From IMG/VR virus record IMGVR_UViG_3300048996_000137, positions 627 to 64,626 of that record: a stretch of DNA of 64,000 nucleotides. One strand, given 5' to 3'. Below are positions 11,270 to 40,057 of this stretch, piece by piece; positions within the stretch are counted from its first letter, which is position 1; each line of letters starts with the position of its first letter. Under the pieces are notes generated by a model. It was not told the DNA's origin and did not search any database. It saw only the letters and a program-made list of their open reading frames with translations. The DNA is from a virus (taxonomy: Duplodnaviria; Caudoviricetes). Position numbers and translations under genes: made by a program.

Positions 11270-12337
11270 TTACGCGGCCGCGAGCACGAGGATCACTGCG
11301 CCGTCGGAGCCTCTGCCGCCCGCGCCACCCGAGCCCGCGTTATTGGGCGAGCCAGTCGAACTCGCGCCACCACCACCGCCACCACCACCACCACCACCGC
11401 CGCGGCCCATCGTGCCGACGGTACCGACGCTGCCGGTCCCGCCCGTAACTCCGGCGCCGGAATCATTGCCGGCGCCACCTGCACCACCGGCGCCGCCGAC
11501 GCCGCTCGTAGCTGCAGGCAGCGCACCTAAAACGCTCGCACGCTCGTCCCCGGGGGATGACGAGCCGCCACCACCACCACCGCCGCCACCGAAGCGCGTG
11601 CCGCCGGCACTCAGGGCGCCGGTTGCAGCTGCGAGCGGCACATCGACGTAGGCGTCATCGCCAAACGTCAGGACACTGCCAAGCACGGGCACTGTAGCGT
11701 CGGCGCCGCCCGCGCCACTGCCGCCCGCACCGGACGACATGCCGCTCGCGTTCGAAGGCCAGCGCACCATCCCCGCTGCGCCGGCGACGACAGCGCTATT
11801 GGTGGCGCCTGCGGTGATCCCCGCCGCAACGATCGGGGGCGTCGCGACGATCAGTGTCGCGCCGCCCGAGATCGCGATCGCAGTAATGCCGGGCGCCGGC
11901 GAAGCCTGCCCTTGTCCAGTGGCGCCCACGCCGCCGGCACCGCCCGCGCTTCCGAGGCCGACCGTTACAACCAACGTCGAACCCGCGGGTGCTTCGACCG
12001 GAGCGTACCGGATCGAACACGAGCCGCCGGCTTTGCCACCGCCGCCGCCGCCGCCGCCATTCGGACTAACGCCGAAGTAACCGCCGCCGCCACCCCACCC
12101 GCCGTACGCGCCCGGCCGTAACCACGCACCGATCAGCTTGTAGCCGGTCGGAATCACGTACGCGGGGTCGCTCGCGGTGAAGCCCACCAGCAGCACCGGC
12201 GCTCCGATCATCTTCGCGTATGCGAGCGAGGCTGCCGCGAGCAGCGCACCACTGAGATTGGTCGCAACGCCGTAGAGCCCGGTGCCCGCGATGTAGCGCA
12301 GCGTCGCGTCGAACTTCGCGCTGAGATCGAAACTCAT
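11270..12337 (-). CDS. Glycine-rich tail fibre protein, paralog 2
   Basis: Poly-Gly tracts; N and C termini near identical to 12345..13433. Confidence 0.75.
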   Translation of the reverse strand: MSFDLSAKFDATLRYIAGTGLYGVATNLSGALLAAASLAYAKMIGAPVLLVGFTASDPAYVIPTGYKLIGAWLRPGAYGGWGGGGGYFGVSPNGGGGGGGGKAGGSCSIRYAPVEAPAGSTLVVTVGLGSAGGAGGVGATGQGQASPAPGITAIAISGGATLIVATPPIVAAGITAGATNSAVVAGAAGMVRWPSNASGMSSGAGGSGAGGADATVPVLGSVLTFGDDAYVDVPLAAATGALSAGGTRFGGGGGGGGGSSSPGDERASVLGALPAATSGVGGAGGAGGAGNDSGAGVTGGTGSVGTVGTMGRGGGGGGGGGGGGASSTGSPNNAGSGGAGGRGSDGAVILVLAAA

Positions 12338-12344
12338 GGTGTGA

Positions 12345-13433
12345 TCACGCGGCCGCGAGCACGAGGATCACTGCGCCCGCGGACCCGTTGCCGCCGTTGC
12401 CGCCCGCGCCACTTGCGCCACCCGTGACTGATCCGGCACCACCACCACCGCCGCCACCGCCGCCACCACCACCGCGGCCCATCGTGCCGTCGGTGCCGTT
12501 GCCGCCCGCGACGCCCGCGGCACCGACACCCGCGTTATTGCCATTGCCACCGGCGCCGCCGTTGCCCGCAGCGCCGCTCGTAGCTGCAGGCAGTGCGCCG
12601 AGCACGCTCGCACACTCATCACCCGGGGAGCTCGCGCCGCCGCCGCCACCACCGCCGCCGCCTTTTTGTGTGCCACTTGCGGTGCCGTTGATGCCGAAGG
12701 ACGGAACGTTGACGTAGGACTGCGCGCCGAACGGAAGCACAGTCAGCAGAGACGGATTCGCGACGCCCGCGCTCGCCCCGGTGTTGCCGTTGCCTCCACC
12801 GGATCCCGCGAGCCCGTTCGTGTTCGAGGGCCACCTTGGGGTCCCGGTGTTGCTGCCGCCGCCAGATCCGGCAACTAGGCCGCCCGCAGAGGTGCTGCCC
12901 GGCCCGACGGACGACGGAAGACGCGACGCGGTGACGAGCGTCGCGCCACCTGAGATCGCAATCGAGGTGTCAGTCGGGACGACCGCCGCGGCGGACCCGG
13001 TGTTACCCGCGATGCCCGCGGCAGCGGACGCTCCGCCCGCACCACCGACACCACCGACACCGACCGTGATCACCAGCGTCGAACCGGCCGGTGCATCGAC
13101 ATCCGTGTACGCGATCGAGCACGAGCTGCCGCCGTGTCCGCCGGCGCCGCCGCCGCCACTCACCGTGCTTGCGCTGCTACCACCGGCACCACTGGCACCG
13201 CCGCACCCGCCCCACGCACCCGGCCGTAACCACGCACCGATCAGCTTGTAGCCAGCCGGAATCACGTACGCGGCATTGGTCGCCGTGAAGCCCACGTGCA
13301 ACACGGGCAGCCCGTCGAGCTTCGAATACGGCACCGAACCTGCGGCGAGCAGCGTCCCGTCGAGGTTTGGTGCAACGCCGTACAGGCCCGCGAAGTAACG
13401 CAGGGTCGCGTCGAGTTTAGTGCTGAGATCCAT
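12345..13433 (-). CDS. Glycine-rich tail fibre protein, paralog 1
   Basis: Shared DLS.K.DATLRY, YVIP.GYKLIGAWLRPGA, GAVILVLAAA. Confidence 0.75.
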   Translation of the reverse strand: MDLSTKLDATLRYFAGLYGVAPNLDGTLLAAGSVPYSKLDGLPVLHVGFTATNAAYVIPAGYKLIGAWLRPGAWGGCGGASGAGGSSASTVSGGGGAGGHGGSSCSIAYTDVDAPAGSTLVITVGVGGVGGAGGASAAAGIAGNTGSAAAVVPTDTSIAISGGATLVTASRLPSSVGPGSTSAGGLVAGSGGGSNTGTPRWPSNTNGLAGSGGGNGNTGASAGVANPSLLTVLPFGAQSYVNVPSFGINGTASGTQKGGGGGGGGGASSPGDECASVLGALPAATSGAAGNGGAGGNGNNAGVGAAGVAGGNGTDGTMGRGGGGGGGGGGGGAGSVTGGASGAGGNGGNGSAGAVILVLAAA

Positions 13434-13442
13434 CGGACAAAC

Positions 13443-28239: not shown

Positions 28240-29109
28240 CTACTTGGTCGTGATCTTGATCACGCCCGGCTTGGTCGAGCCGCGCACGCGACGGTAGCGG
28301 TGCGCCGCCCAGTACGTGTGCATCGCGATCAAGTCGGTGTCCGCGAGCGCGTCGTAGTCGGTGACGACCTTCGGCGGCGCCTGCCACCAGTACGCGAGCG
28401 CGGCTTCTTTCATCAGCAGCATCTCGTACTTCTGCGCGCCGTCGTTGAACGTCTTCATCTTGTCCGACACGACGACCGGGATCCCGTTGAACATCGGGAT
28501 CGGCTCGGCGCGCGTCGGCGTCGTCATCAACTGCTTTCCCGTCGAGTCCTTCAACTTCATCAGGTCGCGATACAGCTTCGAGTGCATCGCGAGCAGACGG
28601 ATCGCGTCCTGCTGATCGCCCCACAGGCCCGTCGCGTCGATGATGACGTCGATGTCGATCTTGCCGCTGCCGATGCCGCTCACATCGAGAGTGAACTCGG
28701 CCGGCACGCCGGTGTTCGCGACTTCGATCAAGGCCTTGTCGACGCGCCGCGTGTTGATCACGCGGAACTGTCGTCCGGCTTCCGCGTACGGATCGCCGAG
28801 CGAAGCCATGCGCGCCCACTCGGTGATCTCGAACGCTTTGCCCGAGTGCCTCACCGTCGCGGTATCCGCGTCCATGCTGATGCTTTCGGGCGTCAGCGCA
28901 TCGCCTTCGTTGACGATGTCCTCCATCTCACCGAGCGTGCCGAAGTAGGGCACCGTGACGGTGTCGCCACCGCGCTTGTCCATCGGCAGCGTGTTGCTCA
29001 TGACGGCAACGCCGCTGCCGACGAGCACGTTTTGTCCCTCGAACTCGCCCTGTACTGCGTCGACGAGGATCTCTGGAATGACGAGGTCACTACGTTTGGT
29101 CAATGCCAT
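28240..29109 (-). CDS. Major capsid protein
   Basis: DL.IPEI, GDTVTVPYF...G, EGDAL, GDPY.EA.RQ, MHSK. Confidence 0.9.
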   Translation of the reverse strand: MALTKRSDLVIPEILVDAVQGEFEGQNVLVGSGVAVMSNTLPMDKRGGDTVTVPYFGTLGEMEDIVNEGDALTPESISMDADTATVRHSGKAFEITEWARMASLGDPYAEAGRQFRVINTRRVDKALIEVANTGVPAEFTLDVSGIGSGKIDIDVIIDATGLWGDQQDAIRLLAMHSKLYRDLMKLKDSTGKQLMTTPTRAEPIPMFNGIPVVVSDKMKTFNDGAQKYEMLLMKEAALAYWWQAPPKVVTDYDALADTDLIAMHTYWAAHRYRRVRGSTKPGVIKITTK

Positions 29110-29165: not shown

Positions 29166-30476
29166 TTAGCGCTGCTCCTGTTGCGCTCGCATCGCGGCGT
29201 ACTGCTCGCGATTGTCGACGTAGAGCTCGTGGCGCTCCTGAGGCTTCAGCTCGCCCCACTTCTTGCCCTTCCACTTCAGCTCGATCTCGGAGTCGTCGTT
29301 GCCGCCGCCGCCGCCATCCGCGGCAACCGTCTTGGGCTGCTTGACGGGTTTGCCGTCGATCGACAGCACGTGCGGCGCGACCTGCAGAAAGGCCTCGAGC
29401 TCGCTGACGGAGCGGCTCTCGTAGTGCTTCTCGAGCGCCGGCGTGAGCTTGCGACCCTTCGGATCGGCCTTGTCGGCGGCGAGCAGCGTCACGCGCTTTT
29501 GCGCGTCGAGCGCAGCTGCATGCGAGCTCGCGTCGGACAGGAGCTTCGGCACCTGCGCCGCGGCTTCGGCCATGCCGCGCAGCGCCCCGAGTACTTCCTC
29601 GTCGTTGTCGCGCTTGGTGATCGCTCGCAGCTCGACCATCAAGCTGGTCGAGCGCTGGTGCTGCTGCTTCATGCGGTCGATCGCGTGAAGCACTGCCGAT
29701 TCGTCTGCGTTTCCGTTCGCGCCGAGCGCGAGCGCAATGGCCGTGAGACTCATGTCGTCTGTCCTTTCGTTGTCGTCGTCGTGCAGCGAGCCGTGGTCGC
29801 CGCGCTCGTCGTCTTCCGCGCCGCTGCGCAACAGAAATGCGCTTCGGCACGCGTGCATCACATCGGCCGGCACGTGCTCGTAGCCGTAGCGACCGAGATC
29901 GAAGTGCAGTCGCACCGACTTCGGCGCCGTCACGTTCTTGCCGCGCACGACTTCATCGACGAGGCCTCGCTCGAGCGCCTGGTCGGGCGTGAGCCACGTC
30001 TCAGCCCGCATCAGCTCGAGCATTTCTTCTTTGGGCTTGCCGCAGCGCTGCGCGTACAGCAGCGCCGCTTCATCGCTGATCGCGCGGAGCCGATTGATCG
30101 ACTTCTGATGCGCGACGTCGTCACCGAACGTGTTGCCGCGCGCGGTGTGCATCATGTAGCTCGAGCCCTGATGCATCCGGACGCGGTCGGCCGCGGTGCA
30201 CAGCACGCTCGCGACGCTCGCGGCGAGGCCTTCGACGTCGATTTCGACTTTCGCCGGATGCGAGGCGAGCATCGAGCGCATCGTCATGCCGTCAAACGCG
30301 TTGCCGCCCGCCGACGACAGCTTGATGTTGATCAGCTCAACGTTCGGGTTTTCCTTCAACCGCTCCGCGAGCCAGGTCGGCCCGATGCCGTCGCGGAAAA
30401 TGAAGTGCTCGCCGATGTCGCCGTACATCTGCAGTTGCAGCTGTGCGCCGCCCGCGAGAAGGAGGGCCTTGTGCAT
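29166..30476 (-). CDS. ClpP-like head maturation protease with scaffold extension
   Basis: SSAGGNAFDG, EGLAASVAS, MMH, ETWLT..AL..GLVDEV; then MSL..IA.ALG scaffold region. Confidence 0.9.
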   Translation of the reverse strand: MHKALLLAGGAQLQLQMYGDIGEHFIFRDGIGPTWLAERLKENPNVELINIKLSSAGGNAFDGMTMRSMLASHPAKVEIDVEGLAASVASVLCTAADRVRMHQGSSYMMHTARGNTFGDDVAHQKSINRLRAISDEAALLYAQRCGKPKEEMLELMRAETWLTPDQALERGLVDEVVRGKNVTAPKSVRLHFDLGRYGYEHVPADVMHACRSAFLLRSGAEDDERGDHGSLHDDDNERTDDMSLTAIALALGANGNADESAVLHAIDRMKQQHQRSTSLMVELRAITKRDNDEEVLGALRGMAEAAAQVPKLLSDASSHAAALDAQKRVTLLAADKADPKGRKLTPALEKHYESRSVSELEAFLQVAPHVLSIDGKPVKQPKTVAADGGGGGNDDSEIELKWKGKKWGELKPQERHELYVDNREQYAAMRAQQEQR

Positions 30477-30501
30477 TGGGGAGCCTTCGGTGAAGTGCCG
30501 C

Positions 30502-31200
30502 TTACGGCTGCAGCGTCTTTTTGCGGCGCGCGCGCTGCTTCTGTTCGTGCTGCGCGAGCGCAGTGGGGTCGTACGAGCTGCGGTCGAGCTCGAGCTCGGC
30601 GCGCACCGGAGGCGCGTAGCCAAAGCCCGGCTGCGGTTGGTGCTTACTCTTGATGTGCGCGCTCACTCCGTGCCGCGAAGCGGTGCTCGCGCTCACGCCG
30701 CGAACCCCCAACCGGCAGCCGTGATGCAGTGGCGGCCACATCAGCAGAAGCCCGGGGTTGTTCGCGCGCACCACCGTGCGATGGAGCGAGCGGCACAGCT
30801 TGGTCGTGCCGCTATCGAGCACGGCCCAGTACATCCGAAAGGGCTTCTGCCCGAGCTCGAGCTGCTCCCAGCGCCCCACGTTGAGCGCGGTCTGCGTCTG
30901 CGTCTGAAACGTCGTCTTGAGCCGGTGGCTATCCACCTGCGCGAAGTCGTCGCGAAGCTTCTTTTTGAGGTGCGCCTGAAAGCCGGCGAAGTCGTCGCCC
31001 TTTTTCACTGCCGCGGCGAGCGCGTTGAGCGCGGCTTGCACGACGTTGAGCTGCGTGACGCCGCTGATCGTGAATGCGGTCAGCTTCGCGCGCCGCTCGA
31101 GCGCGGCGTACTGAGCGTCAGTCACGGCCGTGCGCGAACGAAACCACTTCACCGCCGCGCGTCGCTCGAGCGGGCTCGTCGGGACTTTGCGCCAGGCCAC
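30502..31200 (-). CDS. Phage MuF-like minor head protein (short, no toxin tail)
   Basis: AFTISGV, GRWEQ, YWAVLDS.T...C..L, PPLHHGCR. Confidence 0.9.
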   Translation of the reverse strand: MAWRKVPTSPLERRAAVKWFRSRTAVTDAQYAALERRAKLTAFTISGVTQLNVVQAALNALAAAVKKGDDFAGFQAHLKKKLRDDFAQVDSHRLKTTFQTQTQTALNVGRWEQLELGQKPFRMYWAVLDSGTTKLCRSLHRTVVRANNPGLLLMWPPLHHGCRLGVRGVSASTASRHGVSAHIKSKHQPQPGFGYAPPVRAELELDRSSYDPTALAQHEQKQRARRKKTLQP

Positions 31201-31203
31201 CGA

Positions 31204-31458
31204 TCACTCCAGCGCGTCGTCGTCATCGTCTTCGCGCACGAAGTAGTAGGTGCCGCTGAGAGCTCGATCTACGGCTGCGTAATACGCTGCGCCGTTGGCG
31301 GGCGTCAGCAGCCCCGCGCCCGTGACGATGGTCTTGATGTGCGGGTAGAGATCCAGCGTCGCGGGCGGATCGACGACAACTTGCCCGCCCACGAGCTCGA
31401 ACGTGCACAGCGTCTCGTGTTCGAGGCTGTCCGGATCAACTTGGATGAGGCGTTTCAC
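31204..31458 (-). CDS. Small acidic protein; candidate partner/immunity of the portal-fused kinase
   Basis: GTGA-coupled to portal-kinase stop; TPANG.AY...L.GTY motif. Confidence 0.6.
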   Translation of the reverse strand: MKRLIQVDPDSLEHETLCTFELVGGQVVVDPPATLDLYPHIKTIVTGAGLLTPANGAAYYAAVDRALSGTYYFVREDDDDDALE

Positions 31459-34337
31459 TTGGTCTTCCGCGAAAGCCGCGTGATCTCTTCGAGGTCTTTC
31501 TTCGAGAGCTCGTCTCTGCGAAACCGCTCTTCGGGAATCGCGTTGATCCAGTGGTGAACCGACTCGGCTGCGTCGTGCGCCGCGCTCCAGCGATAGCCAT
31601 CCTGAAACTGGCGCGGCTCGTGCTGCAGCGAACGCACGCGCGCGAGCGTGGATGCGATCTGGTGCTCGGTGATGCCGTGGTCGTGCAGCATCGAGGCCAC
31701 GTGCTCGAGCTTGAGGCTCTGGAGCGCCGAGACGTGCTCGGGCTGAAACTTCACAACTTCCTCGGCGAACGAAGGTGTTTGCTCGATCGCAAACAGGAAC
31801 CGCGCCGGCCTCTCCGGAAATGTCAGGCCATGGTCGATCGCGACTGGGCGAAACGGATGCGCGTCGGGACCGTCCTCATGCCACAACGTGTTTTGCGGGT
31901 TGCGATCGTCGTTGCCGGCGATGAGGTCGAGCATCAGCATCCGCTTCGAGGCCGGATGCGCGCCGAGCTTGGCGAGCTCGGCGTCCCTGGAATCACGCGG
32001 ATCTGCCGACGACCGCTGCTCAGCTCGCCCGATCGAATCGAAGTACACATTCATGCTCGACTTCGCGTTGGGCTCCCACGCCTGCAGCGAGCCGTCCTTG
32101 CCGTCGTGCTCGCGGTGCACGGTGTGCGGCACCATCTTGTCGCCGGCCAACATCTGATCGAGCTTGTGAAACGCCTGTTCGCGACGACCCATCGAGCCAT
32201 TCGCAAGACCCGCGCGGTACTCCTCCATCTGCGGGATCGGCGGGTTGGCCTTCCAGATCGCGTGCTGCTCGTGGCCGTTTTTGTCGCGCAGCGTGAGGCG
32301 CTTCGAACCGAAGTTGCCCGTGTTCACATCGGTGGTGCTGACAACGTTGAGCTTCTCAGCCGTCATCCACTCGGGAGCCGCAGAAGCACCGCCGGGGGCT
32401 TTCTTGTCGGCAGCAGTCTTGCGCGATTTGCCGCTACGAGCTGGTTTGTCGCCATGCTCGGTCCCGCTTGCCGCTTTCTTCGTCTTCGTCGTCCTGGCGG
32501 CCGCTGGCTTCGCCGCGCGCGCCTTCACCTTTGCGATCCGCTCACGTGATGCTTTGCCGCGCTTGGCTGCAGCGCCGCCCGGACGCGATGCGAACCGCCC
32601 ACCCTTGCCGTGGTTCGGGTTGAACAGCTCGGGCTCGAGCGACAGCCCAGGCTCGAGCTCTTCGTCGTCTTCGTCCTCTTCGTCGTCCTCGTCGACCGCG
32701 TGACGGCCCGCGAGGTTCGCCATCACGATGCCCGCTTCCAGAATCTCAGCGAGCGTGTCGGGATCCTGCTCGTCCGCGAAGGCCTTCAAGATCGCCGCGC
32801 GAGCACTCACGTAGTCCGTTGCGCCATCGACGGCCGCAACCAAGCGATCGACGAGCGGCTGCAGCGCCTGCGCACCCTGCGCGACCGAAGCGTCCGCGAC
32901 GTCGTCCACGTAGAGCTGACCGTTTACGAAGCCGGTGCTCGACTCTTCTTCTTCGTCGTCGTCGGCCGCGAGCCTGGCGCCCGGCTTGCGGGTCGGCTTG
33001 GTGCTACTGGGGAGTTTTTTTTTCAGGCCGCCACCGCCGCCGCCACCAGCTGCGCCCGGTGGAACGGGTGGAGGATTGGCCGCGTCCTTCTCGGCCTGGC
33101 TCATCTCAGTGAGCTTGACGCCGTACTGCTCTTCGATCTCCGCGGCGGTGAGCTTGAAGCCCGCTTGCTGGATCGCGCCGAGCGCGGTGCCGAGTGTCGC
33201 GAGCGTTTCGACCTTCGCGCCTTTGTCCTCGGGCGGGTCGGTGTTGTAGCGAGGGAACGGCGCGAGGCCGCGATCGCCGAAGTTGTACTCAGCCCACCAC
33301 GGCAAGCTCTGCTCTTGCAGAATCCGTCCGAGCTTCTTCGACATGTACCTGAACACGCGGAGCTCTTTGCGCTCATGCGTGTTCGCGGCGGCGTAGCTGC
33401 CGCCCTCCACTTCGGTCGTGAGGTTTTGCCCGACGAGCGCAAGCGTGAAGCCCATGTTCGCGGCTTCGATCTGCGCCTTGTAAATCGACTCGGTGCCGGC
33501 GGTCAGCTCGACGAGCTCGAGCGTGAACCCCTGCGGCAAACTGATGACCGCGTCCTTCGCGAGGTTGAAGATCTCGTTCGCGAGCGCGCGCCGGTCTTCG
33601 GGCAGCGCGCCTTCATTTGAGTTGAGGACGAGCTTCGAAGCTTTCTCCGAATGCACGCCCCAGTCGCTCATCGCGTAGCGCTTGAGCATCCACCACGGCG
33701 AGCAGCCTCGCCATTTGCCGTTCGACCACGGCCGGTAGTCACCCTTGAGCGTGCCGATGATCCATTCGCCGTCGCCGGCGACGATGGGCGTGTCGCGACC
33801 GCTCTCGTCGCGGAACAGCCACGTGTTGTGCTCCCAGTCCCAGCGAAAGTGTTTCGGGTGGTACGTCTTGAAGACGGGCAAGACGCGTCCGCCAGACTTC
33901 GAGGGAAGCCACTGCACGTGCCGCCCGAACGCCAGGCCCACGATCTCGAGCCAATCGAGAAAGCTCGCGAGCTCGTCTTCGCCGTACGCGAGCGGCCAGT
34001 CTTCCTCGAGCTCGGCGGCTTTCTCCGCATCGCCGAGTGTCGAGCGCGCGTCCTTCTCGAACGACAGATCACAGCCGAGCACGCCGCCGCTGACGTCATC
34101 GAGCAGCTTGTTGATCCGATCGTCGGCGATCATCTGATCGCCGAGATCACCGAGCCGAATCAGATCGCCGCTGTCCGCAGTCGCAGTGAGCGTTTGCAGC
34201 GAGCGCGGCGTCCAGTGGAGATAGCTCCGAATGGACGGCTGACTGAGAACCTGCCCCTTGCCACCCTGAATGAGCTGCAGGTGGCCGCGCCGGTTTTTCT
34301 CCGGCGTGCCCGCAGTGGGTGGTCTACGGATGGCCAT
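31455..34337 (-). CDS. Portal protein (DUF935/Mu gp29-like) fused to C-terminal PI3/4K- or HipA-like kinase domain
   Basis: Portal motifs LVGQNLTTE..GGSYA...HE and C-terminal ANLAGR; then AIWK, RREQAFHKLD, VPHTV, GSLQAW, LDLIAGNDDR..N, AIDHGLTF. Confidence 0.85.
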   Translation of the reverse strand: MAIRRPPTAGTPEKNRRGHLQLIQGGKGQVLSQPSIRSYLHWTPRSLQTLTATADSGDLIRLGDLGDQMIADDRINKLLDDVSGGVLGCDLSFEKDARSTLGDAEKAAELEEDWPLAYGEDELASFLDWLEIVGLAFGRHVQWLPSKSGGRVLPVFKTYHPKHFRWDWEHNTWLFRDESGRDTPIVAGDGEWIIGTLKGDYRPWSNGKWRGCSPWWMLKRYAMSDWGVHSEKASKLVLNSNEGALPEDRRALANEIFNLAKDAVISLPQGFTLELVELTAGTESIYKAQIEAANMGFTLALVGQNLTTEVEGGSYAAANTHERKELRVFRYMSKKLGRILQEQSLPWWAEYNFGDRGLAPFPRYNTDPPEDKGAKVETLATLGTALGAIQQAGFKLTAAEIEEQYGVKLTEMSQAEKDAANPPPVPPGAAGGGGGGGLKKKLPSSTKPTRKPGARLAADDDEEEESSTGFVNGQLYVDDVADASVAQGAQALQPLVDRLVAAVDGATDYVSARAAILKAFADEQDPDTLAEILEAGIVMANLAGRHAVDEDDEEDEDDEELEPGLSLEPELFNPNHGKGGRFASRPGGAAAKRGKASRERIAKVKARAAKPAAARTTKTKKAASGTEHGDKPARSGKSRKTAADKKAPGGASAAPEWMTAEKLNVVSTTDVNTGNFGSKRLTLRDKNGHEQHAIWKANPPIPQMEEYRAGLANGSMGRREQAFHKLDQMLAGDKMVPHTVHREHDGKDGSLQAWEPNAKSSMNVYFDSIGRAEQRSSADPRDSRDAELAKLGAHPASKRMLMLDLIAGNDDRNPQNTLWHEDGPDAHPFRPVAIDHGLTFPERPARFLFAIEQTPSFAEEVVKFQPEHVSALQSLKLEHVASMLHDHGITEHQIASTLARVRSLQHEPRQFQDGYRWSAAHDAAESVHHWINAIPEERFRRDELSKKDLEEITRLSRKTK

Positions 34338-34364
34338 GTTGGTAGAAGGGCGGGGGAGGCAGAC

Positions 34365-34748
34365 GTGACGAAAATCACTGACGAAGAAGCCATCGCCGCG
34401 GGTGCAGAGCCGGAGGACACCGACTCGCTGCACGCCGCGCGGCTGCAAGAAGAGAAAGCGCAGCTGCTCGAGCGCGACCTGGTCACCGCCCGCATCGACG
34501 TTCAAAACCGGACACAGTGTCTGCAGCGTGCGGTGCGGGTGCTGCAGACCTTCAAGAGCAATGCCGAGCTCGCGCAAGCGAAAGCGGCCGATGTGGAAAA
34601 GATGCTGAGCGAGCGCGCAATCGACGCCGGCGACGAATACACCGAGGGCACGAGCTGGAAAGAGCTTGGGCTAAAGCACGCTGCCGCCGCGGAAGCGTGG
34701 ACCAAGGCGGCGCAGCTGCTGCGCGAAGCGCTACAGGCTTACGTATGA
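34365..34748 (+). CDS. Helical hypothetical protein, antisense to late operon
   Basis: GGAGG RBS before GTG; fills terminase-portal gap. Confidence 0.6.
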   Translation: MTKITDEEAIAAGAEPEDTDSLHAARLQEEKAQLLERDLVTARIDVQNRTQCLQRAVRVLQTFKSNAELAQAKAADVEKMLSERAIDAGDEYTEGTSWKELGLKHAAAAEAWTKAAQLLREALQAYV

Positions 34749-34764
34749 ACGACGGGCGCTACGA

Positions 34765-34956
34765 ATGAACGTGCAACTCGAACTGTTCCCGTTACCGGCG
34801 ACGACCTGTCGCTGCGGGCGCGCCCTGACGGCTTTCATCAACTGCTACCGCGAGCGTTGCGATCACTGCATCTTGCGCGAGGGTCCGCCGCCGGCCGGCG
34901 AAGATCCGGAGGCCAAGCGCGTCGCCCTCAAGCGTTGGCTGAACGCTCAGGTGTAG
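34765..34956 (+). CDS. Small Cys-rich protein
   Basis: QLELF, CRCG, CDHC. Confidence 0.5.
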   Translation: MNVQLELFPLPATTCRCGRALTAFINCYRERCDHCILREGPPPAGEDPEAKRVALKRWLNAQV

Positions 34957-36425
34957 CGACCGCCGCCGCCGAGCACTCCGTAATCGTCGAGGTACAACAG
35001 CGCCGCATCGACACCGCTGACAATCGCATCCGTTTGATCGGACACGTCCTGCTCTGCGCCGGTGAAGCTCGTCAGCTCATCGACGAACACCGGCTGCCAC
35101 GGGTGCGCCTCGATGTCTTCGGGCACAAGAATGCGGCCGAGGTTCCAGAGCTCGCTCGAGGTGAGCGAGCGCGTCAGCTTGTCGCGACCCTTCGGGTCCA
35201 TCACGACGAGCGGGATGCCCTTTTCGCGAATGAACGAAGCGCAGCCCGCTTCAGTGCCCGACGCGTACCAGTAGAACTTCGCGCGACGTGTCGAAAACGC
35301 TGCCTTGAGCGTCAGCGTGAAGCTCGGCGCCTCGACCTGCTTGCGCTGCACATCCACGACGTAGAACAGATAATCTTCTTTGCGCTGCTTCTCGCCGCGT
35401 TTGGTCTTCGCCGGCGGCACAACCCACAGCGTCACGAGCACGCTCCAGTCCGCGCGCGTTTTCGCGGTGTACGCGAGGTCTACGCCGTACACGACGCGGA
35501 AGCCCTCGGTGGGCAACTCGCGATAGTACGTCGGCGTCTTGAAGAGCGTTCCGCCGCGAGGCTGCGGCTGGCCCTGATACAGACTCGCGAAGTTCCACTG
35601 GTTGGCGAGCTGCCGCTCGAGCAGCATCGACAGTGGCCGGTGCGCTTCCCACAGCGCTTCGCCAACCGCCCGCTCGTCGCCGGCGGGCATGTCCTCGCCG
35701 TCGCAAATCGCTTTGAGGTTGATGTACTCGAACCCCTGCTCGCGCACGAGGTAGCCGGACAGATCGTCCGGATGCCAGCGCGTCGCCATCACGATCACGC
35801 TCGAGCCCGGATGAAGCCGCGACTCGACGGTGCCGTGGTACCAGTCCTGCTGGTACGCGCGCGTCGCTTGAGATTCCGCTGCGCCGCGATCCTTGAGCGG
35901 ATCGTCGACCATCATCACGCCGTCGATCGGCTCTCCGGTGAGCCCGCCGCCGACCGAGGTCCACACCACTTGGCCGAGCTCTTCGTTGAGCCACAGGCCA
36001 CCGTTCGCGACGGTCAGCGGCACGCGCGCGCGCTGCGCCGTTACGAGCGCTTTGCGCGAGACGCGTCGCGCGCGATCGTCGTTGTACGTCGCGTACGCGA
36101 ATCGCAGCGCGGGCCACTTGCGCAGCCAGAAGCAAATCGCGTGGACAACCGTTTCGGTCTTGCCGTGCTGCGGCGGAGCCGCGAACACGATCCGCAAGTT
36201 CGCGCCCGGCGCCCGCTCGAGCACATCGACGTAGGGCTTGAGATGGAGCGGCGGTTCCCAGCGCGGTGTGATCCGCGGGATCCACTCCATCAGCGCGTCA
36301 GTGAACTGAGTTGGGTCCTGACTTAGGTCCGCGAGCAGCAGGCGCTGGCGGACTTTCTCTTCGAGCGAGGTATGCCGAGCAGAGTGCGCGGAAAACTTCT
36401 GGCTCAAGTAGCCCTTGGGCAACAT
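34947..36425 (-). CDS. terL: Terminase large subunit (start uncertain, perhaps nearer 36290)
   Basis: APPQHGKT Walker A, GG.LTG, VDDP.K, TRWHPDDL.G, LYQGQP, VDLA, FT...DQ.DA. Confidence 0.95.
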   Translation of the reverse strand: MLPKGYLSQKFSAHSARHTSLEEKVRQRLLLADLSQDPTQFTDALMEWIPRITPRWEPPLHLKPYVDVLERAPGANLRIVFAAPPQHGKTETVVHAICFWLRKWPALRFAYATYNDDRARRVSRKALVTAQRARVPLTVANGGLWLNEELGQVVWTSVGGGLTGEPIDGVMMVDDPLKDRGAAESQATRAYQQDWYHGTVESRLHPGSSVIVMATRWHPDDLSGYLVREQGFEYINLKAICDGEDMPAGDERAVGEALWEAHRPLSMLLERQLANQWNFASLYQGQPQPRGGTLFKTPTYYRELPTEGFRVVYGVDLAYTAKTRADWSVLVTLWVVPPAKTKRGEKQRKEDYLFYVVDVQRKQVEAPSFTLTLKAAFSTRRAKFYWYASGTEAGCASFIREKGIPLVVMDPKGRDKLTRSLTSSELWNLGRILVPEDIEAHPWQPVFVDELTSFTGAEQDVSDQTDAIVSGVDAALLYLDDYGVLGGGGRYT

Positions 36426-36900
36426 CGAGGAACTCGTTGAGCTGGTCGTCGATCGTGTGAACGACGCGTGGCGACCAGTGCTGCGGGTTGCGGAGCGCCA
36501 GGCGTTGGAACGCGACCATCGCGGCCGATTCCTTCACCTTCTGCGCGGCGCCCATCTCGCCGGCGAGCTGCAACATCTCATCGGTTGTGATCGCGTAGCG
36601 GTGCCCGCAGCGCTCGCACGCGACCGGCTTGTGGTCGAGGTTCGCCGCGCGCGCGGTCGTGATCACGTCGTTGACTTCGCCCTCGTCGGACGCCTTCTGC
36701 GCCTCTTCGAGAAAGAGCGTGTACTTGTTGCGTTTGCCCGCGGCCGCGGCCGCACGCCACTCGTGCAGCCGCTGGCGGCGGATGCCGCACGCAGACAGCG
36801 CGGTGGAAAGCGTATTGCCGCCTCGGACCAGCAGAAGCACGCGCTCTCGAACTTCTTCGAGGCGCTTGGGCGCTTCAGACTTCTTCTTCGGCGGCAGCAC
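36298..36900 (-). CDS. Terminase small subunit-like protein (HTH + CxxC)
   Basis: N-terminal HTH (GNT..A...CGI....L.EW); L.LR.PQ.W; upstream of terL. Confidence 0.7.
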   Translation of the reverse strand: MLPPKKKSEAPKRLEEVRERVLLLVRGGNTLSTALSACGIRRQRLHEWRAAAAAGKRNKYTLFLEEAQKASDEGEVNDVITTARAANLDHKPVACERCGHRYAITTDEMLQLAGEMGAAQKVKESAAMVAFQRLALRNPQHWSPRVVHTIDDQLNEFLDVAQGLLEPEVFRALCSAYLARRESPPAPAARGPKSGPNSVH

Positions 36901-37990
36901 GCGCTACGTCCGTCAGCGGTTCTTCGTCTGCTTTTTCTTCGTCTTCTTGGCCGACTTCTTCGCTGCCTTCGCCGGTGCGCTCGGCGCTTTCTGTGCCGTT
37001 CTCTTCGTCATGCTCGTCTCCAACAACGGGGTGCTCTTCGTCCTGTTCGAGCTCGGGTAGTTCGCGGTCGACGATCGGGATCGCCACGAGCGCATCGCGC
37101 GCCATCGCGGCCTCGCGCTCAGTCATCTGCGTGATCTCACGGGCGGCGGCTTCGCGCGACTGCTCCGCGATGCGGGTCTGCTCGGCGCGCTGCTGCTGGT
37201 AGAGCGGCTCGAGCAGCGCATGCAGGCGCTTGCCGTCCTGGAATGTGTTGATCTCGAGGCCGAGCGTTGTCATGAACTTCTCGCTGTCCTCGACGTCCTT
37301 GAACACCACCACGATGTAGAAGTGCTCGCGATCGCGGCCCGCGTTCAGGTTCGCAGTCACCGCGTCGATCGCACCGCTCACATCGCGCTGCGCCTGCGCG
37401 AGCGCTTGCAGCTCCACGCCATGCTCGAGCGCAAAGGGGCTCTCCCCCAGCACGTGCATGATGTCCGCCATGTCGAAGCCGGTGGCTTCGAGGCGCAAAC
37501 CCTCGGTCCGCAGCGCCGCATCGAGCTTTTCGAGATCGAACAGCCCGTGCGTCTCGGGGTTGTTCAGCAGGATGTTCGCCTCGACCTCTTCGGCGAACGT
37601 GAGATCGACCTCCGCAACCTGCAGCGCGTACGCGGGCTTGCCGCCCGCGAGCTTGTCGAGCAGAGCGAGGCGCTGATGGCCGCCGACGAGCGTGCCACTG
37701 CGCCCGTTCCATACGAGCGGCTGGAGCAAGCCCAGCTTCTCGAGCCCGCCGCGCAGCTTCTTACGAGACTGGTCGCTGATCACGCGCGGGTTGTATTCGG
37801 CGTTCTTGATGTCCGCGCGCCAGATCGTGCGAGCTCGGTACTTCTGAAGCGGATGCACGTGCGCCAGCAGGTCGGCGCCGACGTCGCGTTCGGCTCCCCC
37901 TCCCACTGCAGCCATTCTCGGTGCATCCCCTGCTACCGCAGCACTTAGCGGGGAGACCGGGTCGTCGGTGGGCTCAGATGCCGACGCCAT
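36875..37990 (-). CDS. ParB/Srx-like domain protein
   Basis: AEYNPRVIS, GLLQPLVWN..SG.LVGGHQRL, E..ANI.LNN. Confidence 0.9.
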   Translation of the reverse strand: MASASEPTDDPVSPLSAAVAGDAPRMAAVGGGAERDVGADLLAHVHPLQKYRARTIWRADIKNAEYNPRVISDQSRKKLRGGLEKLGLLQPLVWNGRSGTLVGGHQRLALLDKLAGGKPAYALQVAEVDLTFAEEVEANILLNNPETHGLFDLEKLDAALRTEGLRLEATGFDMADIMHVLGESPFALEHGVELQALAQAQRDVSGAIDAVTANLNAGRDREHFYIVVVFKDVEDSEKFMTTLGLEINTFQDGKRLHALLEPLYQQQRAEQTRIAEQSREAAAREITQMTEREAAMARDALVAIPIVDRELPELEQDEEHPVVGDEHDEENGTESAERTGEGSEEVGQEDEEKADEEPLTDVARAAAEEEV

Positions 37991-38645
37991 AAAACTCTCG
38001 TCGCTTCACGATCGCGTGCACGAAGGGAAACACCGCGCGCAGCTTCGCGTAGTCGTTCGGAAACTTGTCGTGCAGCCAAAGCACATCGGGCGTCGCAAGC
38101 CCGATGCCCGTCATCGCTCCGCCGCTCGACTCGGGCAGCGGGATCTTGTGCACCGCCAAGTAGCCGAGCACGTCGGCTTTGCCCCAGCCGACGAGCGGAT
38201 GCATCACGTCGGTGTAGTGAGCGGTGTTAGCGAGGTTGCGCTTGCGCCAGAGCGAATCGCCGCGGCGCGCGCCCGTCGCGATCATCTTGATGCCCGTGCG
38301 ATCGATCATCAGGTTGTAGATGTCGCGCAGCTTCACCTCGGGCAGGTCTTCGAGCTTCCAGCTCGGGAACATGTAGAAGCCGTACTTGAGCGAGCGCGCC
38401 ACCGTCCAGTGCGGCACCTGATGGATCGTGACGCCGTAGCGACTGCGCGCGAGCTCGAGCCGCCGCTCGATCACCTCGAGCCCCGGGATGAAGTACATGA
38501 AGAACGCTTCGACCCGCGCGAACGTGCGCACGCACATGTCGAGGACGCACAGCGAATCCTTGCCCGCGCTGAACGACACGAGGCACGCGTCGCTGCGCTC
38601 CTTGGCCTTGTTCAGGATCCCGAACGTTTCCTGCAGCGGGTCCAT
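37974..38645 (-). CDS. PAPS-reductase-like (PP-loop/adenine nucleotide alpha hydrolase) protein
   Basis: SFSAGKDSL, TGARRGDSL.R, PL..W...DV..Y. Confidence 0.9.
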   Translation of the reverse strand: MDPLQETFGILNKAKERSDACLVSFSAGKDSLCVLDMCVRTFARVEAFFMYFIPGLEVIERRLELARSRYGVTIHQVPHWTVARSLKYGFYMFPSWKLEDLPEVKLRDIYNLMIDRTGIKMIATGARRGDSLWRKRNLANTAHYTDVMHPLVGWGKADVLGYLAVHKIPLPESSGGAMTGIGLATPDVLWLHDKFPNDYAKLRAVFPFVHAIVKRREFYGVGI

Positions 38646-38654
38646 CGGCGCGGA

Positions 38655-38891
38655 TCAGCCCGCGCCGCCGCGCGAGAACTTGCCGCCCTTCTCGTGGCGG
38701 TAGTCGCCTTTGCCACCGCCGCCGCCGCCGCCGCCGCCGCCAAAAAGACGACGAAGAGCCGCGCCCGCTGCAGCGGCCGCCGTCTTGATCGAGAACGTGC
38801 GGCCGCTCTTCTTCTTCTTGCGCGAGCCCGAGGAGCGCCTCAGCGCGGCTGTGCCGCCGCCGAATCGACCACCAACGTTTGTCGTCGCCAT
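38655..38891 (-). CDS. Basic Gly-rich peptide B (78 aa)
   Basis: GAGG RBS; ends GGKGDYRHEKGGKFSRGGAG. Confidence 0.75.
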   Translation of the reverse strand: MATTNVGGRFGGGTAALRRSSGSRKKKKSGRTFSIKTAAAAAGAALRRLFGGGGGGGGGGKGDYRHEKGGKFSRGGAG

Positions 38892-38967
38892 CGTCGAAGC
38901 CCCTCGGTTGAAAGTCCAAAACGAGAAAGAGGGCACGCGGCTGCGTGCCCTCTTTCGGAACTCGGGA

Positions 38968-39114
38968 TCAGCCCGCGCCGCCGCGCGAGAACTTGCCGCC
39001 CTTTTCGTGGCGGTAGTCGCCCTTGCCGCCTTTGCCGCGGCCTTTCTTCGACTTGCCCGCGCCCGCCGCAGCGCCCGCCGTTTTCACTGCCATCGTTACG
39101 TTTTTGCGTGCCAT
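38968..39114 (-). CDS. Basic Gly-rich peptide A (48 aa; below ORF-track cutoff)
   Basis: GAGGAG RBS; hand translation MARKNVTMAVKTAGAAAGAGKSKKGRGKGGKGDYRHEKGGKFSRGGAG. Confidence 0.75.
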   Translation of the reverse strand: MARKNVTMAVKTAGAAAGAGKSKKGRGKGGKGDYRHEKGGKFSRGGAG

Positions 39115-39270
39115 GGAGTCTCTCCTCGCGCGCGTGCGCGTCTGTGTCCGGTTGTCCGGCTCAAGCGCGGCTCGAACTGCCGGTCAATCTCGTCCTCGAC
39201 TGCTGACGACACAACCCCAGTGACATGCACCGAGGCTGCGCGAGCCCTATGAATGGGTGCTGCGCCAGCC

Positions 39271-39306
39271 GTCGCCCGTTGTCGCTGGCTGTCGCTCGCT
39301 GTCGCT
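39271..39306. repeat. Four GTCGC repeats at exact 10-bp spacing
   Basis: GTCGC at 39271, 39281, 39291, 39301 in divergent intergenic region. Confidence 0.7.
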
Positions 39307-39333
39307 CCAATCGTCGTCTAGTGTGCGGCTGCG

Positions 39334-39564
39334 ATGGACCAAAACCCTACAGACGACGAAGACCACGTGCCGACGGGCCCAAGCGCAGCGCTGCTCGGTC
39401 TCGACGGCGAAGACCTGTTCACCGAGATCGTCGAGCTCGTGCGCGACAAGGACGCGTGGCTCGCGTTCATCGCGAGCAAAGAAGCCGAAATCCGCGCGAT
39501 GGCGCTCGATGACGAGGCCGCGGAGCTGATTTTGCGACGGTTGCGCGGCGAAACGGACGAGTGA
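39334..39564 (+). CDS. Acidic hypothetical protein
   Basis: Coupled to next ORF. Confidence 0.5.
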   Translation: MDQNPTDDEDHVPTGPSAALLGLDGEDLFTEIVELVRDKDAWLAFIASKEAEIRAMALDDEAAELILRRLRGETDE

Positions 39565-39986
39565 TGGTCCGCAAGCGCAAACGAGGCCGTGTGGTCAAAG
39601 CTGTGCCGCCCGAGCTCGCGCTGCCGACGCCGGTCTCGCCCCTGGTCGCGATCGGCATGGCCGACCACCTCGGCAAGTTCATGGCGCTGCCGTCGCGCAT
39701 CCGGACCGCCGGCGAGCTCGTCCACGAAGCCGACGTCGGCGACGTCTCCGTGAGCGGAACCCGCAACGCACTCAAGCTCGCGAAGGCGTTGCTCGAGCAA
39801 GCGGCGCGCGACGTGGACAAGCGGCTGGCCACGCTCGAAGAGAAGCTCGAGCGCGCCGTCAACGAAAAACTGACGAGCGTCGAAACGACCGCGACAAACG
39901 ACGCCGCGCGGCAAAATTCAAAAGCGAAAGCGAAACCCCTTCGGGGTTCGAAGGGGAAGAGGGGCCGGGGGCGCGAGCCGTTCTGA
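39561..39986 (+). CDS. Hypothetical coiled-coil protein
   Basis: Coupled ORF. Confidence 0.55.
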   Translation: MMVRKRKRGRVVKAVPPELALPTPVSPLVAIGMADHLGKFMALPSRIRTAGELVHEADVGDVSVSGTRNALKLAKALLEQAARDVDKRLATLEEKLERAVNEKLTSVETTATNDAARQNSKAKAKPLRGSKGKRGRGREPF

Positions 39987-40057
39987 AGCCGGAAAACTCC
40001 CGCACTCTGCACGGACGTTTGCGCGAGTTTCGCGCGTTGGTATGCTCGCCGGCCGAG

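Follow-up and report, generated by a model that had tools for sequence, protein, structure and literature searches.

A widespread short motif precedes exchangeable passenger modules of phage head proteins and may act after head assembly

The DNA analyzed here, referred to below as the window, is a stretch of 64,000 nucleotides from a tailed virus (Duplodnaviria; Caudoviricetes), positions 627 to 64,626 of IMG/VR record IMGVR_UViG_3300048996_000137. Its portal gene encodes a fusion in which a short peptide, FNPNHGKGGRFASRPGG, stands between the portal and a kinase-like domain. Judged from sequence comparisons, this peptide represents a short linear motif that is very common among tailed viruses and heads variable passenger modules fused to, or encoded beside, head-assembly proteins. 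Two small basic proteins from the same late operon, pep1 and pep2, end in a sequence that resembles half of the motif. A possible role of the motif is that of a docking or hand-over signal used after assembly, with the two peptides addressing the same partner through their tails; this reading is preferred tentatively and is held to be somewhat more likely wrong than right. Carriage of cargo in phage heads is known. The conserved junction motif, with its possible C-terminal half-form on polycationic peptides, is apparently undescribed.

The portal fusion is composed of five parts, which follow one another on the minus strand: a Mu-type portal core, an acidic linker, the motif, a polycationic tract of 60–70 residues and a PI3/PI4-kinase-like domain. 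In the numbering of the open reading frame (ORF), the Portal_Mu match covers residues 145–487 and the motif residues 652–668, and the kinase starts at about residue 740.

31455–34577, minus strand: portal ORF, 1,040 codons; probable start at MAIRR, position 34337.
32694–34337, minus strand: Mu-type portal core (Pfam Portal_Mu, E 8e-41; PHROG portal), counted from the likely start MAIRR at 34337.
32625–32693, minus strand: acidic linker (DEDDEEDEDDEELEPGLSLEPEL) from portal core to motif; 15 Asp and Glu in the 40 residues preceding the motif Phe.
32574–32624, minus strand: full junction motif FNPNHGKGGRFASRPGG, from the translation; 26.7 bits on the family profile.
32388–32573, minus strand: Lys/Arg/Ala-rich basic tract after the motif; 24 Lys and Arg per 100 residues.
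31458–32390, minus strand: PI3/PI4-kinase-like cargo (Pfam PI3_PI4_kinase, E 2.8e-5, under the gathering score).

The hallmarks of a portal-fused effector were found: portal and enzyme-like domain lie in one polypeptide, and the gene is flanked by those for TerL, MuF, protease and capsid. The AlphaFold2 model of the cargo is confident (predicted local distance difference test, pLDDT, 89.2; predicted template modeling score, pTM, 0.90). Its best match in the PDB is human PI4KII-alpha (4hnd_B; E 4.5e-9, template modeling score 0.55), followed by mTOR, PIKK and Vps34 kinases; a sequence search of the PDB with the extension returned nothing meaningful. The catalytic loop reads GNDDRNPQN, with DRN for DRH, and the second signature reads IDHG, the family forms being G-N-x-D-R-H-x-x-N and I-D-x-G (DFG-like). 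The loop His is almost invariant among relatives by column conservation in the alignment and is Asn in the window kinase, which may be a variant or inactive kinase. In the AlphaFold2 model of the junction, a confident three-helix portal end is followed by about 100 residues at pLDDT 48–59, with the motif itself below 50, which points to a short linear motif within a predicted disordered linker. A folded mini-domain at the junction was considered and is unlikely on the same grounds.

The motif is a property of the junction and not of the kinase family, which mostly lacks it. The kinase extension has 157 relatives at E ≤ 1e-3. Among the best 150 of these, the strict motif was found in a single protein (QPRDExGRW, present twice), and looser forms, HPRDxxG[KE]F for example, occur in about six. 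A Pfam scan of 27 relatives, chosen as the top matches and long proteins, returned nine MuF fusions, one portal-MuF-kinase fusion without the motif (P0173) and one protein with PT-HINT.

The family to which the portal copy belongs has the consensus [FY]-N-P-x-H-[DG]-x2-3-G-[KR]-F-[AST]-x-G-G. Against a profile built from 160 distinct instances, the window portal site reaches 26.7 bits (E 2e-7 over 1,352 six-frame segments), compared with 10.5 for the highest of 20 shuffles, and it is a clear member. Its core, N-P-N-H-G-K-G-G-R-F, fits the family; Gly at the D/G position occurs in 4/160 instances. The starting point of the family was a search with the extension, which led to a 110-kb IMG/VR contig (L001) where three adjacent genes, between a MuF-like gene and scaffold/capsid genes, hold NPxH[DG]..G.F seven times, once as FNPNHGKGGRFASSPG. 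In IMG/VR, a degenerate DNA pattern encoding NPNHDxxG[KR..]F then matched at least 133 viral stretches, versus 6 for a reversed-codon control. The family is strongly enriched in viral contigs. The statement of an earlier note on this DNA that short H..G[KR]F motifs precede cargo in head-associated phage proteins is borne out by this enrichment, by the score of the portal copy and by the family members found in portal, MuF, protease and capsid fusions or ahead of effector domains.

Conservation extends to positions that the search pattern left free. Ahead of the motif, these are Val, Ile or Leu three residues ahead of Lys (99/160), the Lys itself (107/160) and Phe or Tyr (104/160); behind it, they are Ala, Ser or Thr (149/160), Ser or Thr (110/160) and then a Gly-rich run. 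The flanks of the 160 instances can be written as hydrophobic-x-K-[FY] in front and [AST]-[ST]-G-x-G-G behind. In multi-copy proteins the variants NPN, NPY, NEN, NPH, NMN and NDN were seen, always with retention of Asn, His and G-x-F.

Pfam matches (E ≤ 1e-4) were obtained for 43 of 76 distinct motif ORFs, leaving 33 without. A head-assembly domain is present in 21 of the 43 (Phage_Mu_F 6, Phage_portal 5, Portal_Mu 4, Peptidase_S78 3, and Phage_portal_2, CLP_protease and capsid 1 each). The other 22 have other domains only, which are effector-type or DUF/polyvalent-associated in 20 and Rho_N and DUF2213 in the remaining two; the effector/DUF-type set includes ART-PolyVal, ADPrib_exo_Tox, Zeta_toxin, InPase, LPD3, NUDIX, DUF3626, DUF6321, DUF7178 and DUF7717. 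No tail or replication domain was found among the 43. Two of the ORFs (L079, L080) combine MuF with a PI3_PI4_kinase domain. The motif is C-terminal to the portal domain in all ten motif-bearing portals. Over the 76 ORFs it lies within the first 70 residues in 35 and internally in 36; in the other 5 it falls in the final 110 residues, and two of these 5 are truncated by the end of the locus.

A second form, (K/R)-Y-(S/N)-P-D-QPRVPAG-x3-GGQF-A-x-GGG, has the same prefix and suffix as the first. It was found in 52 IMG/VR stretches representing 43 ORFs; 21 of these have Pfam matches, 12 to portal or MuF and 9 to effectors only, and among the domains are a type IB topoisomerase and, on two portals, Acb1 (anti-CBASS). 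There is a further sister form, HPRD..G.F. The two Acb1-bearing proteins (L163 and L192, IMG/VR) are Phage_portal_3 portals in which the domain follows QPRVPAG..GGQF, and L192 has an ART domain as well. Acb1, a known counter-defense enzyme, thus appears by its sequence to be a portal cargo in these loci.

The first pattern also matched 80 stretches in prokaryote genomes from very diverse phyla, among them archaeal metagenome-assembled genome (MAG) contigs labeled Methanosaeta, Methanotrichaceae and Nitrososphaeraceae. From 79 distinct prokaryote ORFs, 56 were scanned (≥160 aa; two with a stop inside the motif context were excluded). Pfam matches were found in 23: 12 portals (three of which have a CdiA-CT RNase A domain), one MuF, one S78, one S49, six effectors and two chance matches in housekeeping genes. 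None of the 56 has a conjugation domain. The archaeal-MAG NPNHD..GRF loci (L302, L324, L325, L341, L362, L363), in which binning errors are possible, place the motif ahead of an ADP-ribosyltransferase twice. In Alphaproteobacteria MAG contigs (L295, L337, L293), a CdiA-CT-type RNase A domain stands behind the NPNHD motif in prophage portals; L293 has the same domain on a stand-alone motif protein.

Comparison of portals shows that the window portal-kinase is one member of a cargo-swapping portal lineage. Among 33 portal homologues at 30–70% identity, all four with a long extension have a motif variant at the same junction (P0003 YNHNHGADGKFAGSGGAG, P0004 FQPKRDKLGRFAPMAGSG, P0005 QPRVPRGSSSGGQFSRGGAGGG, P0016 QPRVPAGYGGGGRFTKG), and P0033 combines QPRVPAGNPHGGEFAP with a tail of 75 residues behind it. 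Tails of 40–70 residues with neither motif nor cargo are present in about ten others, and the remainder end at the portal core. Conservation in homologous portals, on which the earlier note had staked its motif, therefore holds, in that cargo-bearing relatives keep a variant at the same junction. Among 45 more distant portal loci, a cargo-bearing portal was found only in L201, with the degenerate motif VQHYPAGSSKGGQF; the MuF gene of this locus has GQPRVPAGSSKGGQW and then a cargo paralogous to that of the portal. In L201 (6240–9350 and 10028–11827) the portal and MuF cargoes each stand behind PAGSSKGGQ[FW], and the portal copy is accompanied by an additional Lys/Ala tract of ~130 residues.

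The cargoes differ between portals. The window has a kinase and P0003 a precomputed match to the DRAT family; in our reading of the sequences, the cargoes of P0005 and L201 would be zincin-like (HExxH) and that of P0016 GNAT-like. Portals that are 43–70% identical carry unrelated cargoes right behind the motif. The succession of acidic stretch, motif, polycationic tract (24–35 Lys and Arg per 100 residues) and cargo is found in 6/7 portal fusions of the clade. All cargo-bearing portals of the clade have the motif, and 14 of 15 MuF-cargo fusions in related loci are without it. The phage Mu portal has neither extension nor motif. With the portal as a single-sequence query, viral and genome contigs returned no related loci; alignment-based searches retrieved them. 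A 45-aa segment of the portal junction searched against longer proteins gave nothing at E ≤ 10, and a tblastn search of a phage collection with a 24-aa junction query, which is short and of low complexity, gave no match. A second short element, D-P-x-Q/E-x-x-L-x-F, directly follows the portal core, also in cargo-less portals of the clade; it was seen in P0010, P0027, P0016, L201 and the window (32625–32640, EPELF).

The link between the motif family and the two basic peptides is weaker than the portal case. In a six-frame translation of the 64-kb window, the pattern H.KGG[KR]F has exactly three matches, all on the minus strand.

32592–32612, minus strand: first copy, H-G-K-G-G-R-F, in the portal ORF (context ...EPELFNPNHGKGGRFASRPGG...).
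38676–38696 (pep2) and 38989–39009 (pep1), minus strand: copies in the peptides (context ...KGDYRHEKGGKFSRGGAG-stop).
38968–39114, minus strand: pep1, a Gly/Lys-rich ORF of 48 aa ending in KGDYRHEKGGKFSRGGAG, by translation; pI 11.2, third-position G+C (GC3) 0.80.
38655–38891, minus strand: pep2, 78 aa from the ATG, pI 12.0, with the same 18-aa tail.
38925–38956, minus strand: terminator-like hairpin with a 14-bp stem and T-run, directly after pep1.

No match was obtained in 300 residue shuffles within the 1,352 segments, and the looser pattern GG[KRQE]F[AST]x0-3GG occurs at the same three places only (shuffle mean 0.03). The earlier note had counted three copies in otherwise unrelated late proteins. 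The three sites are real; the count of independent occurrences falls to two, since pep1 and pep2 are tandem paralogues that share a 78-nt 3′ repeat with 91% identity. The 18-aa tail (KGDYRHEKGGKFSRGGAG) is identical, with only two differences, both synonymous, and the remainder has diverged by indels. Between the portal and peptide copies there is no DNA similarity beyond that imposed by the common residues.

When the peptide core HEKGGKF was scanned over 69 putative proteins (16,172 aa, the peptides left out), its best ungapped BLOSUM62 match was exactly the portal site, with a score of 31. With windows picked post hoc, the portal-site score was attained by 9/2,000 permutations of the 7-mer and 16/2,000 of a 9-mer; for an ungapped 13-mer it was attained by 1,089/2,000, which is not significant. 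Both kinds of copy have a Gly-rich follow-on (ASRPGG in the portal, SRGGAG in the peptides), and the P0005 portal junction, GGQFSRGGAG, is nearly identical to the peptide tail, GGKFSRGGAG.

Both peptides are rich in Gly, Lys and Ala and have plausible ribosome-binding sites, that of pep1 being AGGAGA 7 nt ahead of the ATG. An additional GGRF lies near the N terminus of pep2 (38862–38873). The ESM Atlas model of pep2 (pLDDT 0.42) predicts disorder, and the ESM Atlas contains no usable look-alike for it. No similar Gly/Lys peptides were found in the 45 related portal loci. Rfam gave only sub-threshold matches at 38000–40000 (Thr_leader at 38924–39026, 26 bits against a gathering score of 55), and no sigma-70-like promoter was found at 38400–39700. 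The hairpin stands near the start of the late operon and may serve as an attenuator or antitermination point.

Similar tails were sought elsewhere. A metagenome scan for YRHEKGGKF gave no stretch; KGGKF[ST]RGG gave 44, of which 42 are likely chance. In contigs like podoviruses HTVC023P/CRP-901, basic proteins with genes next to that of the head-tail adaptor have the C terminus ...RGMGAATKGGKF[ST]RGG-stop. They exist in a 79-aa form and in 295–350-aa forms with LysM and KKTKGMAKGG repeats, and the ending ...KGGKF[ST]RGG-stop on such proteins accounts for 4/4 IMG/VR pattern matches and 2/44 metagenome matches. These loci are marine and podovirus-like (L259 1161–2048, L241 611–850, L286–L289). 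CRP-901 and DSL-LC04, relatives of the L259 contig, are without the basic tail protein, and the 79-aa L241 protein, a short and low-complexity query, had no match in a tblastn search of the phage collection. The two peptides are regarded as orphan polycationic candidates for internal head proteins.

How the motif may act is suggested by the fate of the Mu portal. In the virion structure of Mu the last 124 portal residues are absent, which the authors ascribe to cleavage by protease I (PMC11915804). In the reading preferred here, the head protease would likewise cut the C-terminal part of the portal, as in Mu-type portals. By homology with Mu, the cut would free the C-terminal helices, acidic linker, motif, basic tract and kinase as one piece. 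The motif and the DNA-binding basic tract would then hold the freed passenger on, or pass it to, a conserved part of the exit path, and the passenger would leave with the genome; candidates for this part are MuF (the "DNA pilot"), the end of the DNA and the portal channel. The lineage-specific, disordered polycations pep1 and pep2, with their degenerate half-copy end Y-R-H-E-K-G-G-K-F-S-R-G-G, would most likely be abundant internal head peptides that bind DNA and address the same partner through the tail.

A later step of this kind is preferred over entry into the head. As part of the portal, the kinase is inside the head in any case, so the motif probably does not serve for entry here, and its absence from 14 of 15 MuF-cargo fusions argues against a general sorting tag and for release, hand-over or ejection. 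The prohead sorting role proposed in the earlier note is thus unlikely for a portal-fused domain, and the interpretation of the note, one tag directing different cargoes to the prohead or the ejection channel, is partly supported overall. A broader version is rather unlikely: that one near-universal peptide signal, in tailed viruses of bacteria and archaea, marks capsid-travelling proteins that leave with the DNA, that either the DNA itself or a conserved element on the way out reads it, and that the kinase bears the full signal and the peptides are loaded by the half-signal. If this were true, sequence alone would suffice to predict packaged effectors, and the addition of about 17 residues could bring foreign proteins into phage heads.

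Several observations weigh against docking or hand-over. Portal, MuF, protease and capsid proteins vary greatly between the phages that share the motif, and its sequence hardly varies, which is awkward for protein-protein docking. This near-invariance, which extends across bacteria and archaea, has no explanation in a simple docking model, better fits intrinsic chemistry or a universal ligand, and is rated the main difficulty. The motif is present in the MuF fusions L021, L023, L029, L034, L079, L080, L151, L189 and L201, and it is missing from at least one portal-MuF-kinase fusion, P0173. The peptide tails score only 3.2–3.7 bits on the full family profile; a half-motif profile of 13 columns gives 8.1 and 6.8 bits, with 8.1 attained by 12/40 shuffles. 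They read D-Y-R-H-E-K-G-G-K-F, without Asn-Pro and with Glu at the D/G position, and Asn is present in all true variants seen. Their motif lies seven residues from the stop with no domain behind it, an extreme C-terminal placement unseen among the 76 NPNHD ORFs. From these scores, the absent Asn and the position near the stop, family membership of the tails is not demonstrable, and the view of the earlier note that they are copies of the portal tag is not supported. A search for pep1 homologues among called proteins of 26–84 aa returned only pep1 itself, and the strong terminator that follows it makes a leader or regulatory unit possible instead. In mycobacteriophage Patience, small proteins encoded beside the portal are listed as virion proteins by mass spectrometry (PMC4324244, in its Table 1). 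Their computed pI is about 12 and they are without the G-x-F motif, so basic head peptides need no such motif.

Judged separately from the alternatives for the portal motif, it is unlikely that the peptides have no relation to that motif and reflect a chance likeness of Gly/Lys low-complexity peptides with another job, for which a late-operon leader or attenuator, DNA-binding regulators or partners of the neighboring PAPS-reductase-like/ParB-like genes are proposed. The profile scores that lack significance, the failure of homologue searches and the strong terminator with its weak, sub-threshold Thr_leader match (26 versus 55 bits) fit this explanation, as does the location of the genes upstream of the terminase module, outside the portal-to-capsid block. 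Chance likeness is harder to reconcile with an exact seven-residue pattern seen in 0/300 shuffles, with a best proteome match that is the single true family site, with a tail nearly identical to the P0005 portal junction and preserved through synonymous changes only in otherwise diverged paralogues, and with the analogous C-terminal tails on basic proteins of other phages.

A processing site, at which a prohead protease cut or Asn-Pro self-cleavage frees passengers from carriers retained in the capsid (portal, capsid protein, protease), is quite unlikely. The presence of the motif at every module boundary of multi-module proteins (8 copies in L078, 5 in L014) is consistent with such a site, and so are its conserved hydrophobic-x-Lys-[FY] lead and its occurrence in portal, protease and capsid fusions but mostly not in MuF fusions, given that MuF itself may be ejected. 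C-terminal processing is also reported for the Mu portal (PMC11915804). By homology, however, the Mu cut would fall more than 100 residues upstream of the motif position here, so that release would be independent of the motif. About 17 conserved residues are more than a cut site should require; E, M or D stands in place of Pro in 11/160 instances; stand-alone proteins can begin MGNPNHD or MSNPNHD, with nothing to remove; and the peptide tails lack Asn-Pro. In favor of self-cleavage, N-P-x-H resembles the NPTH of FlhB and YscU, which autocleave between N and PTH. Their site sits in a folded domain, in the turn that joins two strands, and both Asn and Pro are essential. A site of the FlhB/YscU type fits poorly: the motif has pLDDT <50 and no folded domain around it, in addition to the replaced Pro (11/160) and the tails without N-P.

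It is improbable that the motif and its Gly-rich linker are mainly a cassette boundary, a conserved module border that favors cargo swapping by homology and has no binding role. The unrelated cargoes directly behind the motif in portals 43–70% identical are what such a border would produce, and the paralogous cargoes of the L201 portal and MuF, each behind the motif, and the mostly motif-free kinase family agree with it. Conservation is seen at the protein level, though, across GC contents and domains of life, beyond recombination between relatives; the portal and peptide copies have no extra DNA identity, and N-terminal copies on stand-alone proteins have no upstream recombination partner. 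Least probable is a host-directed motif that after injection binds a universal cell component (nucleic acid, ribosome, protease) to localize, activate or time the destruction of effectors, for although the sequence is near-invariant across phages of very different hosts and accompanies host-acting domains (ART, Zeta, RNase, Acb1, kinase), it is also found on portal and protease tails without a recognizable effector (L011, L049, L076), and its presence in bacteria and archaea leaves few common protein targets.

The preferred docking or hand-over signal has partial counterparts in known systems. In T4, the internal proteins IPI–III and Alt have a capsid targeting sequence, an N-terminal leader of roughly 10 residues that attaches to the scaffolding core and is cleaved off by gp21 at L/I-x-E. 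The two have in common a short peptide on unrelated, head-internal, injected proteins; there is no sequence likeness, and the motif described here is internal (portal) or C-terminal (peptides), is repeated at module borders and occurs in many phage groups. Encapsulin cargo-loading peptides, which draw cargo into an HK97-fold shell, are terminal, follow a flexible Gly/Ala/Pro-rich linker and bind the shell protein itself. The pep1 and pep2 tails have the same layout, a Gly run and then a conserved C-terminal peptide, but their sequence is different. In polymorphic toxins, border motifs (VENN in CdiA, PxxxxDPxGL in Rhs) separate a conserved delivery part from interchangeable C-terminal effectors, much as portals of 43–70% identity have different cargo behind the motif; sequence and delivery machine differ, and in phages the motif can in addition stand at the start of separate proteins and recur within a single one. 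Patience gp111 and gp9–gp18, small basic virion proteins (Pope et al., 2014, PMC4324244), are a precedent for pep1 and pep2 as head-internal polycations, with a pI of about 12 and genes in the head module. Their genes differ in lying between portal and protease and in the lack of G-x-F, whereas pep1 and pep2 are encoded upstream of the terminase module and have half-motif ends.

Effectors fused to portal or MuF are known; the assumption is that they are packaged and then injected (Iyer, Burroughs, Anand, de Souza and Aravind, 2017, PMC5512222; Jamet et al., 2017, PMC5576092), and the packaging of T4 Alt is mentioned in the first of these. The polyvalent and MuF effectors described in passages of PMC5512222 have the same repertoire as the motif family (ART-PolyVal, InPase, PBECR, LPD3, Zeta); the window differs by its PI3/PI4-kinase-like cargo on a Mu-type portal. 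No conserved junction peptide is described in the passages of PMC5512222 or PMC5576092 drawn on here. The motif strings were not found in the open-access papers searched, and supplements (Iyer et al., bioRxiv) might show the motif. Outside T4, the organization, release and delivery of passengers are poorly understood. With its presence in hundreds of viral and prophage sequences, heading ART, Zeta-toxin, RNase, Acb1, topoisomerase and kinase modules, the motif offers a handle for finding injected effectors and counter-defense proteins by sequence, for studying the step in which it takes part (docking, cutting or ejection) and possibly for loading designed cargo into the capsids of phages of laboratory strains.

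The phage is a myophage with a Mu-like head module, from a soil metagenome. The window is nearly all of one 64,626-base contig (G+C 65%); the stretch was found in one soil-metagenome DNA run, and no RNA run is listed as containing it. The late operon is on the minus strand and reads from high to low coordinates, in the order pep1, hairpin, pep2, PAPS-reductase-like, ParB-like, possible small terminase, TerL, portal ORF, an 84-aa ORF, MuF, ClpP-type protease fusion, major head protein, sheath, tube and tape measure.

34947–36425, minus strand: TerL.
30502–31200, minus strand: MuF-like minor head protein, 232 aa, without cargo extension (Pfam Phage_Mu_F, E 9.7e-11; PHROG 220, "minor head protein and DNA pilot").
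29166–30623, minus strand: ClpP-type head maturation protease with a Mu gpI/Z-like scaffold region (Pfam CLP_protease, E 4e-19, and Mu-like_Pro; PHROGs).
28240–29109, minus strand: major head protein (PHROG 247, E 3.7e-29).

The MuF-like protein of the window is a candidate partner of the motif. The named phages nearest by portal are Meiothermus and Thermus phages and Myxococcus phage Mx4, at 28–32% identity, and the portal of a Polyangiales MAG contig is 35% identical to that of the window. The peptide genes are separated from the terminase genes by an overlapping PAPS-reductase-like and ParB-like gene pair (36875–38645, minus strand), which we take to resemble prophage IbrA/IbrB-type pairs. 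Between TerL and portal, on the opposite strand, lies a Cys-rich ORF of 63 aa (34765–34956, plus strand; CxC...CxxC, GC3 0.81), which may be a real small zinc-ribbon gene within the late operon. The Gly-rich section of the motif profile matches weakly, and many times over, in two long Gly-rich frames (11273–13442, minus strand), which may be collagen-like tail-fiber repeats.

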